Positions 10,784-21,143 of a stretch of 64,000 nt of DNA are shown piece by piece. Source of the stretch: Escherichia coli (lineage in GTDB: Bacteria > Pseudomonadota > Gammaproteobacteria > Enterobacterales > Enterobacteriaceae); the NCBI RefSeq assembly GCF_003334785.1, contig NZ_QOWV01000001.1; one strand, given 5' to 3'. The translations under genes were made by a program, and so were the position numbers. The first letter of the stretch is position 1, and each line of letters opens with the position of its first letter. The notes below the pieces were generated by a model. The model saw only the letters and a list, made by a program, of their open reading frames with translations, did not search any database and was not told where the DNA came from.

Positions 10784-10803
10784 TACCCAATTTTTCTGAA
10801 TCT

Positions 10804-10830
10804 AAAAAGCGCCTGCGGGCGCTTTTTTTG
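10804..10830 (+). terminator. Intrinsic terminator of serS
   Basis: agcgcc-tgcg-ggcgct hairpin followed by TTTTTTT, 21 bp after the serS stop. Confidence 0.85.
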
Positions 10831-10837
10831 TCTCCCT

Positions 10838-10851
10838 TTGATACCGAACAA
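10838..10851 (+). promoter_or_regulatory. FNR box candidate for dmsA promoter
   Basis: TTGAT-accg-AACAA matches FNR consensus TTGAT-N4-ATCAA with one mismatch; dmsABC is an FNR-activated anaerobic operon. About 170 bp upstream of dmsA ATG, implying a long leader. Confidence 0.55.
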
Positions 10852-11021
10852 TAATTACTCCTCACTTACACGTAATACTACTTTCGAGTGAAAATCTACC
10901 TATCTCTTTGATTTTCAAATTATTCGATGTATACAAGCCTATATAGCGAACTGCTATAGAAATAATTACACAATACGGTTTGTTACTGGAATCAATCGTG
11001 AGCAAGCTTGAGTGAGCCATT

Positions 11022-15933: not shown

Positions 15934-17082
15934 ATGTCCACGTATACCCAGCCTGTCATGCTTTTGCTGTCTGGCCTGCTTTTGTTGACTCTGGCGATTG
16001 CGGTGTTAAATACACTCGTGCCGCTTTGGCTCGCCCAGGAACACATGTCCACATGGCAGGTAGGCGTTGTCAGCTCATCCTATTTTACCGGCAACCTTGT
16101 CGGTACATTGCTGACAGGGTATGTCATTAAGCGCATTGGCTTTAACCGCAGCTATTATCTGGCCTCCTTCATTTTTGCCGCTGGCTGTGCCGGCCTTGGC
16201 CTGATGATTGGATTCTGGAGCTGGTTGGCTTGGCGTTTTGTCGCGGGCGTCGGCTGTGCCATGATTTGGGTGGTTGTTGAGAGCGCGCTGATGTGCAGTG
16301 GGACGTCACGTAACCGTGGGCGTTTGCTTGCTGCGTATATGATGGTTTATTACGTGGGAACGTTTTTAGGCCAGTTACTGGTCAGCAAAGTTTCAACCGA
16401 GCTGATGTCCGTATTGCCGTGGGTTACAGGTTTGACGTTGGCAGGGATCTTACCGCTGTTGTTTACGCGTGTGCTGAATCAGCAGGCTGAAAACCATGAT
16501 TCGACGTCAATTACGTCAATGCTAAAACTCCGTCAGGCGCGGCTTGGCGTGAATGGCTGCATTATCTCAGGAATCGTTCTGGGATCTCTATATGGCCTGA
16601 TGCCGCTGTACCTCAATCACAAAGGGGTGAGCAATGCCAGCATTGGTTTCTGGATGGCGGTACTGGTCAGTGCGGGTATCCTTGGACAATGGCCGATTGG
16701 ACGTCTGGCGGATAAGTTTGGTCGACTGCTGGTGTTGCGTGTTCAGGTCTTTGTCGTCATTCTCGGCAGTATCGCGATGCTTAGCCAGGCGGCGATGGCC
16801 CCAGCGTTATTCATCCTCGGTGCCGCTGGCTTTACGCTATATCCGGTGGCGATGGCATGGGCTTGCGAGAAAGTTGAACATCATCAACTGGTGGCGATGA
16901 ACCAGGCCTTACTGTTGAGCTATACTGTGGGAAGTCTGCTTGGCCCGTCATTTACCGCTATGCTAATGCAGAATTTCTCCGATAATTTATTGTTTATCAT
17001 GATCGCCAGCGTATCGTTTATCTATTTGCTGATGCTGCTGCGCAACGCCGGTCATACGCCGAAACCCGTTGCTCACGTGTAA
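15934..17082 (+). CDS. ycaD: MFS transporter YcaD
   Basis: 382 aa, about 12 predicted hydrophobic segments, typical MFS organisation. Confidence 0.92.
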
Positions 17083-17091
17083 ATGAATTCA

Positions 17092-17132
17092 AGCAGAGTG
17101 TGAACTTACTGTTTCACACTCTGCTTTTTTGT
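17092..17132 (+). terminator. Intrinsic terminator of ycaD
   Basis: agcagagtgtgaa-cttactgt-ttcacactctgct (13-bp stem) followed by TTTTTTGTTTC. Lies inside the spurious N-extension of the track ORF 17100..18722. Confidence 0.85.
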
Positions 17133-17291
17133 TTCTTCTATCTGACTTGCTTTATTCCAAATTTTATTCGTTTAAAAATAAAATGTGCAGCAGGTTATAA
17201 TTTTGCATTTCGCTATTTCCGCACTTCTTATTTGCCGCGCATAATCCCTCGTTTTACAGATGCCCCTTTAATTTTGGCGAAGGATTTGTCT

Positions 17292-18722
17292 ATGGCTGGG
17301 AATGTTCAGGAAAAACAGTTGCGATGGTACAACATTGCGCTGATGTCTTTTATCACTGTCTGGGGTTTTGGCAACGTTGTTAATAACTATGCCAACCAGG
17401 GGCTGGTGGTTGTTTTTTCATGGGTGTTTATCTTTGCACTCTATTTCACACCTTATGCGCTAATTGTTGGTCAGTTAGGCTCGACCTTCAAAGATGGGAA
17501 GGGCGGGGTCAGTACCTGGATTAAACACACGATGGGACCCGGACTGGCTTATCTCGCCGCGTGGACCTACTGGGTGGTGCATATTCCCTATCTGGCACAA
17601 AAACCCCAGGCAATTCTGATTGCGCTCGGTTGGGCGATGAAAGGCGACGGTTCGCTAATCAAAGAATATTCAGTCGTAGCGTTACAGGGGTTAACGCTGG
17701 TGCTGTTTATCTTCTTTATGTGGGTTGCTTCACGCGGTATGAAATCGCTGAAAATCGTCGGTTCTGTGGCAGGGATTGCTATGTTTGTTATGTCGCTCCT
17801 GTATGTGGCGATGGCGGTAACCGCGCCTGCAATTACTGAAGTGCATATTGCGACCACAAACATTACCTGGGAAACGTTCATTCCTCATATCGACTTTACC
17901 TACATTACCACTATTTCAATGCTGGTTTTCGCGGTTGGCGGAGCAGAGAAGATTTCTCCTTACGTTAATCAAACGCGCAACCCAGGAAAAGAATTTCCAA
18001 AAGGGATGTTATGCCTGGCGGTGATGGTTGCGGTTTGTGCCATTCTGGGCTCGCTGGCGATGGGGATGATGTTTGATTCGCGTAATATCCCGGATGACTT
18101 AATGACCAACGGTCAGTATTACGCCTTTCAGAAGCTGGGCGAGTATTACAACATGGGTAATACTTTAATGGTGATTTACGCCATTGCGAATACCCTGGGA
18201 CAAGTAGCGGCGCTGGTATTCTCGATTGATGCCCCGCTTAAAGTGCTATTAGGTGATGCTGACAGCAAATATATTCCAGCCAGTTTATGTCGTACCAACG
18301 CTTCTGGTACGCCCGTTAATGGCTATTTTCTGACCCTGGTACTGGTGGCGATTCTGATTATGCTGCCGACTCTCGGCATTGGTGATATGAACAATCTCTA
18401 TAAATGGCTGTTGAACCTTAATTCGGTAGTGATGCCGCTGCGTTATTTATGGGTATTTGTTGCATTTATTGCAGTCGTTCGCTTGGCGCAGAAATATAAA
18501 CCAGAATATGTCTTTATTCGTAATAAGCCTCTGGCAATGACCGTCGGGATTTGGTGTTTTGCCTTTACCGCCTTTGCCTGTTTGACGGGGATCTTCCCGA
18601 AAATGGAAGCCTTCACTGCAGAGTGGACCTTCCAGTTGGCGCTGAATGTTGCAACGCCGTTTGTGCTGGTAGGATTAGGACTGATATTCCCGCTGCTGGC
18701 GCGTAAAGCGAATAGTAAATAA
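17292..18722 (+). CDS. ycaM: Putative amino acid/APC-family permease YcaM
   Basis: 476 aa from ATG 17292 (MAGNVQEKQLRWYNIALMSF...). The track start at 17100 would read through the ycaD terminator and an AT-rich promoter-like region. Confidence 0.9.
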   Translation: MAGNVQEKQLRWYNIALMSFITVWGFGNVVNNYANQGLVVVFSWVFIFALYFTPYALIVGQLGSTFKDGKGGVSTWIKHTMGPGLAYLAAWTYWVVHIPYLAQKPQAILIALGWAMKGDGSLIKEYSVVALQGLTLVLFIFFMWVASRGMKSLKIVGSVAGIAMFVMSLLYVAMAVTAPAITEVHIATTNITWETFIPHIDFTYITTISMLVFAVGGAEKISPYVNQTRNPGKEFPKGMLCLAVMVAVCAILGSLAMGMMFDSRNIPDDLMTNGQYYAFQKLGEYYNMGNTLMVIYAIANTLGQVAALVFSIDAPLKVLLGDADSKYIPASLCRTNASGTPVNGYFLTLVLVAILIMLPTLGIGDMNNLYKWLLNLNSVVMPLRYLWVFVAFIAVVRLAQKYKPEYVFIRNKPLAMTVGIWCFAFTAFACLTGIFPKMEAFTAEWTFQLALNVATPFVLVGLGLIFPLLARKANSK

Positions 18723-19631
18723 TTATTGTGGTCGGTGACGCTGACTCTGGCAGATCTGACCCGTTTTTACATAATCGAGAAATGCGCGCAAGCCGCAGGA
18801 CATATACTGGCGGTTTGGATAATAGATCTGGAAGCCTGGACGCTCTGTGCTCCAGTCTTCCAGTACACATTCTAAACGACCAGTATCAAGGTACTCCTTG
18901 ATCTGTTCATAGAGCAGATACCCGATACCAGCACCCATCAAAACGGCCTCCAGTTCAGCATCAACATCATCCAGAATGATATTTCCTGCGACAGCAATTT
19001 CCAGCTCCTTTGCAAATTGCCAGTGGAAAGGTTTGCCGCTGGGATAACGAAAAACAACACATTGATGATTAAGCAGATCATGAGGATGGCGGGGTTTGCC
19101 ATATCTTGCAAAGTACTCTGGCGTTGCTGCTACACATAATTTCACTGGCGGGCCGATCGCCACGCTGATCATATCTTTTTCGACGATGCAACTAAGTCGA
19201 ACGCCAGCGTCAAAGCCCTGTTGGACGATATCGACAAGAGAGTCGTCAGTTGTGAGCTCGACTTTAATATCAGGATATTCACGTGTGAAACCAACCAGTA
19301 AAGACATTAAAAATATACGTGCAGCTACCCGGGCGGCATTGATTTTGAGCGTTCCTGTCGGTGTCAGACGAAAATCATTCATCTCATCTAACATGATCTG
19401 AATTTCGTCGAAAGCTGGGCGCAATCGTTCATAGAGATTAGAACCCGCTTCCGTTAACGATACGCTTCGGGTTGTCCGATTGAATAAGCGAATTTTAAGA
19501 CGTTGTTCCAGTGTTTTAATACTATGGCTAATGGCGGACGAGGATAAGCCTAACTCATCGCCCGCTGCACGAAAGCTTTGATTACGGGCCACGGCAAAGA
19601 AAGTGGCAAAGTCAGACATATTCATCCGCAT
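18723..19631 (-). CDS. ycaN: LysR-type transcriptional regulator YcaN
   Basis: 302 aa; N-terminal HTH (FRAAGDELGLSSSAISHSIKTLEQRL) and LysR substrate-binding domain. Stop codon abuts the ycaM stop with zero spacer. Confidence 0.92.
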   Translation of the reverse strand: MRMNMSDFATFFAVARNQSFRAAGDELGLSSSAISHSIKTLEQRLKIRLFNRTTRSVSLTEAGSNLYERLRPAFDEIQIMLDEMNDFRLTPTGTLKINAARVAARIFLMSLLVGFTREYPDIKVELTTDDSLVDIVQQGFDAGVRLSCIVEKDMISVAIGPPVKLCVAATPEYFARYGKPRHPHDLLNHQCVVFRYPSGKPFHWQFAKELEIAVAGNIILDDVDAELEAVLMGAGIGYLLYEQIKEYLDTGRLECVLEDWSTERPGFQIYYPNRQYMSCGLRAFLDYVKTGQICQSQRHRPQ

Positions 19632-19654
19632 TAGTGAAAATCCTTCATTAACTC

Positions 19655-19680
19655 ATCCTGAATCATCACGTTTACAGGAT
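19655..19680. promoter_or_regulatory. Inverted repeat ATCCTG-N14-CAGGAT in ycaN/ycaK divergent promoter region (candidate LysR-type operator)
   Basis: Perfect 6-bp arms read from sequence, 24 bp upstream of the ycaN start and 51 bp upstream of the ycaK start. LysR-type regulators typically bind dyads in the divergent region. Function is inferred, not known to me. Confidence 0.35.
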
Positions 19681-19730
19681 TATGCCGCCTGCGTAAAGTG
19701 CGCTCCAGAACTTAACGTGGAGGTAAAATT

Positions 19731-20321
19731 ATGCAGTCTGAACGTATTTATTTGGTATGGGCCCATCCTCGTCATGATTCATTGACCGCACATATTGCTG
19801 ATGCGATCCATCAGCGGGCAATGGAGCGGAAAATACAGGTGACGGAACTCGATTTATATCGGCGTAATTTCAACCCAGTGATGACGCCGGAAGATGAACC
19901 AGACTGGAAGAATATGGATAAACGTTATTCTCCAGAGGTTCATCAGCTTTATTCAGAGCTGCTTGAACATGACACGTTAGTGGTGGTTTTTCCTCTCTGG
20001 TGGTACAGCTTCCCGGCAATGCTAAAAGGATATATTGACAGAGTATGGAATAATGGGCTGGCTTATGGAGATGGGCACAAATTACCATTCAATAAAGTTC
20101 GTTGGGTGGCGCTGGTTGGAGGAGACAAAGAATCATTTGTCCAGATGGGCTGGGAAAAAAATATAAGCGATTATTTAAAAAATATGTGCAGTTATCTTGG
20201 TATTGAAGATGCCGATGTCACTTTCTTGTGTAATACAGTGGTATTCGATGGGGAAGAACTTCACGCGAGCTATTATCAGTCGTTATTATCTCAGGTACGG
20301 GATATGGTAGATGCACTATAA
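19731..20321 (+). CDS. ycaK: Flavodoxin-like NAD(P)H dehydrogenase (quinone)-family protein YcaK
   Basis: 196 aa MQSERIYLVWAHPRHDSLTAHIADAI...; flavodoxin_2-like fold. Confidence 0.9.
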   Translation: MQSERIYLVWAHPRHDSLTAHIADAIHQRAMERKIQVTELDLYRRNFNPVMTPEDEPDWKNMDKRYSPEVHQLYSELLEHDTLVVVFPLWWYSFPAMLKGYIDRVWNNGLAYGDGHKLPFNKVRWVALVGGDKESFVQMGWEKNISDYLKNMCSYLGIEDADVTFLCNTVVFDGEELHASYYQSLLSQVRDMVDAL

Positions 20322-20357
20322 GATGTGTTAAAAACGCTGTAGCAGAATGAAGCGCGG

Positions 20358-20393
20358 AATAAAAAAGCGGCAACTCAATAAAGTTGCCGCTTT
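20358..20393 (-). terminator. Intrinsic terminator of pflA (structurally bidirectional, also follows ycaK)
   Basis: agcggcaac-tcaataaa-gttgccgct 9-bp stem; T-run on the minus strand (plus A-run 20360-20365), TTT on plus side. Confidence 0.75.
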
Positions 20394-20402
20394 ACGGGGA
20401 AA

Positions 20403-21143
20403 TTAGAACATTACCTTATGACCGTACTGCTCAAGAATGCCTTTCACGCGTTCCATGGTCTCTTTCTTCGGTGGTTTAACACCGTCGAGTTTGTACTCTT
20501 CACCCATTGCCACCCATTTGTGTTTGCCCAGCTCGTGGTAGGGGAGAAGCTCGATTTTCTCAACGTTGCCCATATCACGGGTAAATTCACCGAGGCGATG
20601 CGCTGAATCGTCATCGTCAGACCAGCCTGGGACAACAACGTAGCGGATCCACACCTTCACATTTTTGTTCGCCAGATATTTAGCGAACTCCAGCGTGCGG
20701 TGGTTGGAAACTCCAACCAGATTTTGGTGGATCTCGTCGTTCATCTGTTTGAGATCGAGCATTACCAGGTCGGTTACTTCCAGCAGTTCATCAATCACCG
20801 GATCGTAACGACGAACAAAACCGTTGGTGTCCAGACAGGTATGAATGCCTTCTTTTTTGCAGGCGCGGAACCAGTCACGAACAAACTCAGCTTGCAGGAT
20901 TGCTTCACCGCCGGATGCGGTAACGCCGCCGCCGGAAGCGTTCATAAAGTGGCGATAGGTCACCACTTCCTTCATCAAATCTTCAACGGTAACTTCTTTA
21001 CCGCCATGCGTGTCCCAGGTGTCGCGGTTATGACAATACAGGCAGCGCATCAGGCAGCCCTGGAAAAAGGTGATAAAGCGAATACCTGGGCCGTCTACGG
21101 TTCCACAGGATTCAAAGGAGTGAATGCGACCAATAACTGACAT
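20403..21143 (-). CDS. pflA: Pyruvate formate-lyase activating enzyme (radical SAM)
   Basis: 246 aa from ATG 21143 ([23 protein letters not shown]...); radical-SAM CxxxCxxC motif CLMRCLYC. Track ORF adds 9 upstream codons. Confidence 0.95.

Follow-up and report, generated by a model that had tools for sequence, protein, structure and literature searches.

The stop codons of ycaM, a permease gene, and ycaN, a gene for a LysR-type regulator, face each other with no base between them, and this junction most plausibly reflects the way the locus came together and not a regulatory device built for the purpose. We put the probability of this explanation at about 0.7; it comprises the insertion of a gene module directly behind ycaM and transcript ends that are probably diffuse and aided by Rho. 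The analysis covers a 64,000-nt stretch of Escherichia coli DNA (the window), whose coordinates map onto E. coli K-12 MG1655 from 929,938 onward, together with gene orders in related genomes, allele structure within the species and a sample of other convergent gene pairs.

The ycaM and ycaN stop codons abut

Reading the sequence places the ycaM stop codon at 18720-18722 on the + strand and that of ycaN at 18723-18725 on the - strand, leaving zero intergenic bases. Across the junction the + strand reads CGT AAA GCG AAT AGT AAA TAA, followed immediately by TTA TTG TGG. The features at the junction are:

17292..18722, + strand: ycaM (b0899), APC-family permease of 476 aa, stop codon TAA at 18720-18722
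18723..19631, - strand: ycaN (b0900), LysR-type regulator of 302 aa, stop codon TAA, which appears as TTA on the + strand, at 18723-18725
18718..18727, no strand assigned: perfect palindrome of 10 bp, AATAATTATT, with the junction at its centre and the stop codon of both strands inside it

The same boundary is given by the open reading frame listing (a + frame ending at 18722 and a - frame at 18723..19631) and by the RefSeq annotation of MG1655, where ycaM (b0899, 947229-948659) and ycaN (b0900, 948660-949568) have adjoining coordinates; in the RefSeq annotation of NCTC9100 the two genes likewise abut. Homologues agree with both gene ends. The alignment of YcaM with its Firmicutes and enterobacterial relatives reaches its final residues, and YcaN, at 302 aa, compares with 295-307 aa in its ten intact closest relatives. 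The zero-base abutment that the original prediction described is therefore confirmed by sequence, reading frames, annotation of both strains and homologues. The reading that one coding end is wrong and that a true spacer is present is effectively refuted, as the reading frames fix the stop codons, homologues support both frames to their ends and RefSeq annotates several strains independently.

The final conserved residue of YcaN is K289 of the motif LRAFLDYVK, some 13 codons ahead of the stop, and the tail TGQICQSQRHRPQ, which makes up the last ~12 residues, shows no conservation among relatives. An abnormal lengthening of YcaN through read-through into the junction was nevertheless rejected, its length falling inside the range of the relatives. 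We also found no support for the idea that the last ycaM codons were made by the junction, as the YcaM C-terminus RKANSK agrees in length and pattern with the Firmicutes consensus KKxNxK. A role for the palindrome as a recombination or binding site is similarly unsupported: it is mostly a consequence of TAA meeting TTA, which dictates six of its ten bases, and the two further matching pairs would arise by chance about 1 time in 16, which is not statistically notable. At one ycaN locus (L014) the gene is frameshifted and split.

Convergent genes without a spacer are common in E. coli

Abutting convergent stops are a common layout in E. coli, so that the rarity implied by the original prediction is not borne out. 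We sampled four independent 50-kb stretches of MG1655 (200 kb), chosen irrespective of ycaM-ycaN, which contain 37 convergent pairs; the spacer is zero or negative in 7 of these and at most 10 nt in 14. About one in five convergent pairs thus lacks a spacer, and the abutment of ycaM and ycaN is already present in the standard K-12 annotation. A preprint that lists 704 convergent pairs in E. coli likewise had to remove those at zero or negative distance.

Several K-12 pairs share the geometry of ycaM-ycaN, with stops adjacent or overlapping and without an intergenic terminator: ybdL-ybdM (from our sample, with a spacer of exactly 0 nt), emtA-ycgR (1 nt), fepE-fepC (-4), ycbJ-elyC (-24; this is the second such pair inside the window, overlapping by 24 nt) and cho-ves (-41). 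The ycaM-ycaN pair differs from them only in having a likely origin, an insertion, that we can trace.

A ycaN-ycaK module was probably inserted behind ycaM

Relatives of ycaM and relatives of ycaN lie in different gene neighbourhoods. In a Salmonella assembly (L087) and on two contigs with enterobacterial synteny (L090 and L097), ycaD and ycaM are followed by pflA on the opposite strand, with neither ycaN nor ycaK present. The ycaM-pflA spacers at these three loci fold into hairpins (dG of -16, -29.6 and -22.6 kcal/mol, respectively, for the segments folded), and their nucleotide homology to E. coli ycaM ends at window positions 18701-18705 and resumes at pflA. The closest relatives of ycaN, found in genera that include Limnobaculum, Rahnella, Cedecea and Serratia, are paired instead with a divergent partner:

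19731..20321, + strand: ycaK, encoding an NAD(P)H oxidoreductase and divergent from ycaN, with which it forms the putative inserted module

This divergent ycaN-ycaK pair is present at all 11 of the closest ycaN loci (L004-L014), while ycaM, ycaD and pflA are found within 4 kb at none of them (0/11). In this the pair resembles the familiar arrangement of a LysR regulator with a divergent target gene, as ycaN and ycaK are likewise divergent, are separated by a 99-nt spacer and stay together in the closest relatives. In contrast, ycaM falls outside the conserved module, and the adjacency of ycaM and ycaN is specific to E. coli. Base composition also sets the module apart: GC3 is 0.58-0.61 in ycaD, pflA and pflB but 0.41 in ycaK and 0.44 in ycaN.

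Because ycaM faces pflA elsewhere, and because relatives of ycaN carry ycaK and never ycaM, we infer an insertion in the E. coli lineage, in which the low-GC3 ycaN-ycaK module probably landed right behind the ycaM stop and displaced the old terminator. The direction of the event, insertion as opposed to loss, is deduced from parsimony over the three ycaM-pflA lineages together with composition.

Three allele states occur within E. coli

The locus is variable among E. coli strains, which carry either the full locus, or ycaM with a remnant of ycaN, or neither gene. The following features define the variable segment and its left border:

17133..20360, no strand assigned: strain-variable segment ycaM-ycaN-ycaK, absent from about 1,070 of 5,426 complete E. 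coli genomes
17091..17132, + strand: intrinsic terminator of ycaD, a 14-bp stem with a T-run, found by consensus scan and by a Term-seq end; the variable island begins directly after it

The island-free allele has its breakpoint at 17132/17133, and the measured Term-seq 3' end of ycaD, at MG1655 947069 (PMC7815308 supplement), corresponds to window position 17132. In a deletion allele found in about 1,000 genomes, a ycaN 3' remnant of exactly 111 nt is retained behind ycaM. This deletion is probably a single event, since the two genomes examined share one breakpoint; retention of the remnant is also what one would expect if it served ycaM as a functional 3' UTR or terminator. Across about 4,350 E. 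coli genomes the junction itself hardly varies, at a within-species divergence too low to speak for or against selection.

The junction has no convincing intrinsic terminator

No convincing intrinsic terminator is found at the ycaM/ycaN junction. The terminator consensus scan gave no match near 18720, and Rfam returned nothing at the junction, either at gathering thresholds over the whole window or at an E-value of at most 1 over 18300-19200. An inverted-repeat search with folding of both strands around the junction gave nothing significant, its sole yield being a weak hairpin that folds no better than shuffled sequence. This hairpin and the strong one at the far end of the module are:

18731..18770, + strand: weak hairpin with an interrupted stem (GGUCGG...CUGACC), then CGUUUUUAC; it falls within the ycaN tail codons that are not conserved
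20364..20393, no strand assigned: strong hairpin in the ycaK-pflA interval, with A-runs and T-runs at its sides and 13 pairs on the - strand in the consensus scan; terminator for pflA

The element at 18731-18770 is the sole terminator-like one within ~500 nt past the ycaM stop. Its dG is -10.9 to -11.1 kcal/mol, a stability equalled by 59 of 200 shuffled sequences (z = -0.4), and the hairpin with its U5 tract was missed by the consensus scan. Equally good hairpin-U candidates occur at a background of 2.2 per kb per strand, a rate at which chance alone would put one within 50 nt of ~10% of stops. On the ycaN side nothing terminator-like occurs for ~750 nt past the stop. Strong folding is seen instead in the ycaM-pflA spacers of relatives, in the ycaD hairpin (17091-17126) and in the one at 20364-20393, where the folded 81-nt segment has a dG of -23.3 kcal/mol (z = -3.3).

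The boundary structure of a bidirectional terminator, a G+C-rich hairpin set between an A-run and a T-run, is likewise absent from the ycaM/ycaN boundary. The pair resembles bidirectional terminators with collision-assisted termination in being convergent, so that head-on encounters between polymerases are possible in principle. As outlined by Wang et al. (bioRxiv 10.1101/2022.10.23.513370), the SEnd-seq model of Ju et al. 2019 needs a boundary hairpin to fix the site of collision and suits highly expressed pairs best, whereas ycaM-ycaN has no spacer, no significant hairpin and apparently low expression. The Term-seq supplementary files of Adams et al. that were searched mention only the ycaD end at 947069 and have no entry for ycaM or ycaN, which low expression could explain as well as diffuse termination.

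Transcripts probably end diffusely, with a plausible contribution from Rho

Composition points to Rho as a plausible alternative route to termination, most clearly downstream of ycaM:

18843..19022, + strand: C-rich, G-poor tract in the RNA of ycaM read-through, which is antisense to ycaN; by composition a candidate rut region for Rho loading

In 80-nt windows starting at 18843-18943 on the + strand, the fraction of C is 0.29-0.34 and that of G 0.14-0.17, with C/G reaching 2.45; a C/G of at least 2 occurs in just 3% of antisense-of-CDS windows of the region. The tract thus has the C-rich, G-poor composition over ~80 nt of untranslated RNA that is sought in Rho targets, and Rho-dependent termination of ycaM read-through is plausible on this ground. 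The ycaN side is weaker, with C/G of 1.4-1.6 just past the stop and values of at least 2 only ~640 nt downstream. Suppression of untranslated or antisense transcription is described as a general principle of Rho action, and the situation here is similar: beyond either stop any RNA runs antisense and is not translated, and it includes a tract rich in C and poor in G.

We picture the history of the locus as follows. The older resident, ycaM, would originally have stood opposite pflA across a spacer with a strong hairpin. A LysR module, consisting of ycaN and the divergent, target-like ycaK, would then have landed directly behind the ycaM stop and displaced that hairpin, with ycaN ending, after 13 tail codons that are not conserved, at the first stop in frame, the TTA half of the TAATTA palindrome. 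With the stops thus back to back, neither gene has an intergenic terminator and each 3' UTR must run antisense into its partner. Transcription would most probably end diffusely, with Rho acting on the untranslated antisense RNA; past the ycaM stop this RNA would offer the C-rich, G-poor tract 120-300 nt downstream, past the ycaN stop RNA that is only moderately C-rich, and the weak hairpin with its U5 tract may assist termination of ycaM. On this history the locus illustrates the birth of a junction, a LysR-oxidoreductase module having come to lie exactly behind a resident stop codon with removal of the hairpin terminator. What this adds is modest and evolutionary in kind, although the locus may serve as a natural test case for termination and antisense transcription after an insertion.

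Transcript overlap and alternative readings

The original prediction that no room is left for a terminator between the stops, and that any 3' UTR must be antisense to the partner gene, holds good: the second point follows from the zero spacer, and overlapping ycaM and ycaN transcripts are already listed in a published map. ExcludonFinder (NAR 2025, PMC12288877) places the pair among 165 MG1655 convergent pairs with overlapping transcripts, and Table 1 of that paper gives overlap in at least 50% of 58 MG1655 transcriptomes. As neighbours on opposite strands with facing 3' ends, ycaM and ycaN have the layout of convergent excludons, a concept that stems from Listeria and underlies the E. coli map (PMC12288877), and their transcripts necessarily overlap; in ycaM-ycaN, however, the overlap is a trivial result of zero spacing.

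The overlap could nonetheless be functional, through the transcriptional interference that the original prediction suggested: colliding RNA polymerases, together with cleavage of the duplex by RNase III, would let permease and LysR regulator suppress each other, and this coupling would maintain the zero spacer. Zero spacing does guarantee overlap whenever both genes are transcribed, and excludon pairs as a class show reciprocal single-cell expression and higher synteny (PMC12288877). Yet the ExcludonFinder list includes 12 of the 14 sampled pairs with a spacer of at most 10 nt; a short spacer by itself is almost enough to predict a place on it, and such a place therefore tells little about function. 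The ycaM-ycaN synteny is moreover confined to E. coli and Shigella and is lost in ~39% of complete E. coli genomes, ycaM expression looks low (a single RNA-seq value of 7), which would make collisions rare, and a ycaN-deletion study (PMC9068703) that reports altered expression of the neighbours ycaC, ycaD and focA does not name ycaM among them. A selected coupling of this kind seems to us improbable. Only a little more credible, and still unlikely, is that ycaM has an intrinsic terminator of its own embedded in ycaN, with the hairpin at 18731-18762 and U5 at 18765-18769 doubly coding the non-conserved C-terminal tail of YcaN. This hairpin is the only hairpin-plus-U-tract candidate over the ~500 nt past the stop, it starts 9 nt beyond it in tail codons free to vary, and the ycaN remnant of the deletion allele keeps it unchanged; however, its stem closes a large loop, itself partly structured, with only six pairs, its folding energy (dG of -11 kcal/mol) is matched by shuffles, its presence this close to a stop carries the ~10% chance expectation given above, the consensus scan missed it, and the searched Term-seq files have no entry for ycaM.

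Two further readings have ycaM RNA continuing into ycaK. The gene order would suit a noncontiguous operon, since ycaM (+) and ycaK (+) flank the opposite-strand ycaN (-), and no strong terminator follows the ycaM stop before the hairpin at 20364-20393 is reached; RNA from ycaM could then cross ycaN in antisense and join permease and oxidoreductase on one molecule with the regulator silenced. Against this, ExcludonFinder (PMC12288877) reports only three E. coli cases, of which ycaM-ycaN-ycaK is not one, and 900 nt of untranslated RNA should be prone to termination by Rho, given the C-rich, G-poor tract at 18843-19022, leaving the arrangement highly improbable in our view. We give similarly little credence to a dual use of the sequence, whereby induction of ycaM would lead to read-through, its extent set by Rho together with the weak hairpin-U5, that silences ycaN and reaches into ycaK as a conditional noncontiguous ycaM-ycaK transcript. 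Were it true, a recently inserted regulator module would have been rewired by that transcript.

Gene layout at the ycaM/ycaN junction

The window is E. coli K-12 sequence; its coordinates correspond one-to-one with MG1655 (start 929,938), differing at nine single bases over the first 50 kb. The genes discussed here are as follows.

15934-17082, plus strand, ycaD
17292-18722, plus strand, ycaM (APC-family permease)
18723-19631, minus strand, ycaN (LysR-type regulator)
19731-20321, plus strand, ycaK (NAD(P)H oxidoreductase)
20403-21143, minus strand, pflA

At the junction the plus strand reads ...AAT AGT AAA TAA/TTA TTG TGG..., where TAA (18720-18722) ends ycaM and TTA (18723-18725) is the ycaN stop codon in reverse complement. 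The abutting ends are identical in the RefSeq annotation of MG1655 and other strains, and both are credible, since YcaM aligns with its relatives up to its last residues (the tail RKANSK fits the Firmicutes consensus KKxNxK) and YcaN, at 302 aa, falls inside the 295-307 aa span of its intact closest relatives. The zero-base abutment originally noted is borne out by sequence, annotation and homologues alike. A 10-bp palindrome centred on the junction (AATAATTATT, 18718-18727) is mostly an automatic consequence of TAA/TTA. At the other end of ycaM, the 540-aa mechanical ORF begins at GTG 17100 and shares sequence with the ycaD terminator; aligned homologues favour the annotated ATG at 17292, and a promoter-like sequence match (TTAAAA, 18-nt spacer, TATAAT) lies at 17172-17201.

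Frequency of convergent pairs without a spacer

In the MG1655 annotation we took four 50-kb stretches at coordinates fixed beforehand and counted every plus-strand gene followed by a minus-strand gene. Among the 37 convergent pairs, 14 have a spacer of at most 10 nt and 7 a spacer of zero or less, so that about one fifth lack a spacer.

Sampled MG1655 convergent pairs with spacer of zero or less (nt)
fepE-fepC, -4
ybdL-ybdM, exactly 0
ymfI-ymfJ, -63
tfaP-tfaE, -29
ymgM-cvrA, -129
cho-ves, -41
nudG-ynjH, -35

The ycaM-ycaN layout is thus ordinary rather than unusual. A 2026 preprint gives 704 convergent pairs for E. coli and excludes zero and negative distances from its controls. Elsewhere in the window, ycbJ (plus) and elyC (minus) converge with a 24-nt overlap (42685-42708), tighter than ycaM-ycaN, and are also in the published excludon list.

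Strain variation of the locus

The locus is variable within E. coli, as counted across 5,426 complete genomes.

Alleles among 5,426 complete E. coli genomes
Full ycaM-ycaN-ycaK locus, 3,318
ycaM and a 111-nt ycaN 3' remnant, then pflA (e.g. O157:H7), ~1,040
ycaD directly followed by pflA, ~1,070

The variable island spans 17133-20360 (GC 45%, against 51% for the window), beginning directly downstream of the ycaD terminator (3' end at 17132 by Term-seq; PMC7815308) and ending at a hairpin common to ycaK and pflA. In the remnant allele (E. coli loci L002, 5837-5876, and L085) 40 nt of filler precede the pflA hairpin; as this filler is unlike the K-12 sequence after ycaK, a simple deletion in the K-12 form does not account for the allele. 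In E. coli 2017-02-1CC, IS1 stands in place of ycaM, homology to the window restarting 10 nt into the ycaN tail (breakpoint 18733) with YcaN at 300 aa, and in strain YPE10 IS1 lies within ycaN; from these two IS1 cases, the locus is a recurrent target of rearrangement.

Origin of the junction

The sole addition of the present analysis is a plausible history of this junction. In a Salmonella enterica assembly (L087) and two contigs of enterobacterial synteny (L090 and L097), ycaD and ycaM are followed by opposite-strand pflA, with neither ycaN nor ycaK, and a hairpin follows ycaM in each (folded segments of dG -16 (z = -1.4), -29.6 and -22.6 kcal/mol). Nucleotide homology between E. coli ycaM and these relatives stops at ~18701-18705 and restarts at pflA. 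The nearest ycaN relatives, at 59-74% identity, come from Limnobaculum, a Caballeronia isolate, Rahnella, Cedecea, Serratia, two Enterobacter sp. isolates and Symbiopectobacterium. Each of them adjoins a divergent ycaK, and ycaM, ycaD and pflA are absent within 4 kb in every case. GC3 is 0.44 in ycaN and 0.41 in ycaK, versus 0.58-0.61 in ycaD, pflA and pflB. The parsimonious reading of these observed gene orders, from which we infer the direction of change, is that the E. coli lineage acquired a ycaN-ycaK module by insertion right after the ycaM stop. Such an insertion would have replaced the old hairpin between ycaM and pflA, and the incoming ycaN would extend through a non-conserved 13-codon tail to its first in-frame stop.

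Transcript ends and termination

The argument that a junction lacking room for a terminator places each transcript end inside the partner gene is logically right, and agrees with published transcript overlap: Table 1 of ExcludonFinder already catalogues ycaM-ycaN as one of 165 convergent pairs whose transcription overlaps in 50% or more of 58 MG1655 RNA-seq sets (PMC12288877). A consensus scan recovered no terminator near the junction. Searching both 3' ends for hairpins with a permissive scan gave a single weak plus-strand candidate past the ycaM stop (hairpin 18731-18762 followed by CGUUUUUAC, dG ~-11 kcal/mol) and, on the ycaN side, no terminator-like element over ~750 nt past the stop. This hairpin-U5 element could possibly be a doubly coded ycaM terminator. 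Its fold is no more stable than that of shuffled sequence (z = -0.4), and candidates of matching quality occur at 2.2 per kb per strand across the window, so that chance alone would place one within 50 nt of ~10% of stops.

The RNA beyond the ycaM stop contains a C-rich, G-poor tract (18843-19022; maximum C/G 2.45, a ratio of at least 2 being reached in merely 3% of antisense-of-CDS windows here), a candidate Rho loading site by composition. RNA beyond the ycaN stop is initially no more than moderately C-rich (C/G 1.4-1.6). Neither gene has an entry among the Term-seq supplementary tables searched (PMC7815308), and ycaM is very low in one published RNA-seq value. Our best guess is that termination is diffuse and mainly Rho-dependent, leaving weakly expressed, mutually antisense 3' ends.

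A noncontiguous operon, in which ycaM transcription would run over antisense ycaN and on into ycaK, is possible; ycaM-ycaK is not among the three E. coli noncontiguous operons of ExcludonFinder (PMC12288877). That transcriptional interference couples permease and regulator, making the pair a functional excludon (opposite-strand genes with overlapping transcripts), is speculation. Its catalogue listing tells little about function, because tight packing alone nearly predicts listing (12 of the 14 sampled pairs with spacers of at most 10 nt are listed; PMC12288877). Against such coupling, the adjacency occurs only in E. coli and Shigella and is missing from ~39% of complete E. coli genomes, polymerase collisions would be infrequent given low expression, and the changed neighbours named in a ycaN deletion paper are ycaC, ycaD and focA, with ycaM absent from them (PMC9068703).

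Further observations

Apart from a few enterobacterial sequences at 83-92% identity, YcaM has its nearest homologues in Paenibacillus, Brevibacillus and Clostridium (63-72%), which suggests that the gene passed between Firmicutes and enterobacteria long ago. One aligned homologue (P0019 in alignment A1) is near-identical to E. coli YcaM over ~200 central residues and strongly divergent at both ends; a recombinant or a chimeric assembly probably accounts for it. The Salmonella ycaM (GCA_006829485.1) encodes 420 aa, ~50 residues being missing at roughly window 18278-18431, and the same locus carries the sopD effector gene between pflA and pflB. Two Rfam matches exceed their gathering scores: sRNA STnc130 (140 bits, 10797-10931, minus strand, between serS and dmsA) and ES036/CssrF (53 bits, 54458-54500, plus strand). 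The ycaK 3' UTR (20322-20402) includes a strong hairpin at 20364-20393, and 'ycaK.3UTR' is listed as an RNA interaction partner in a RIL-seq study (PMC8175672).
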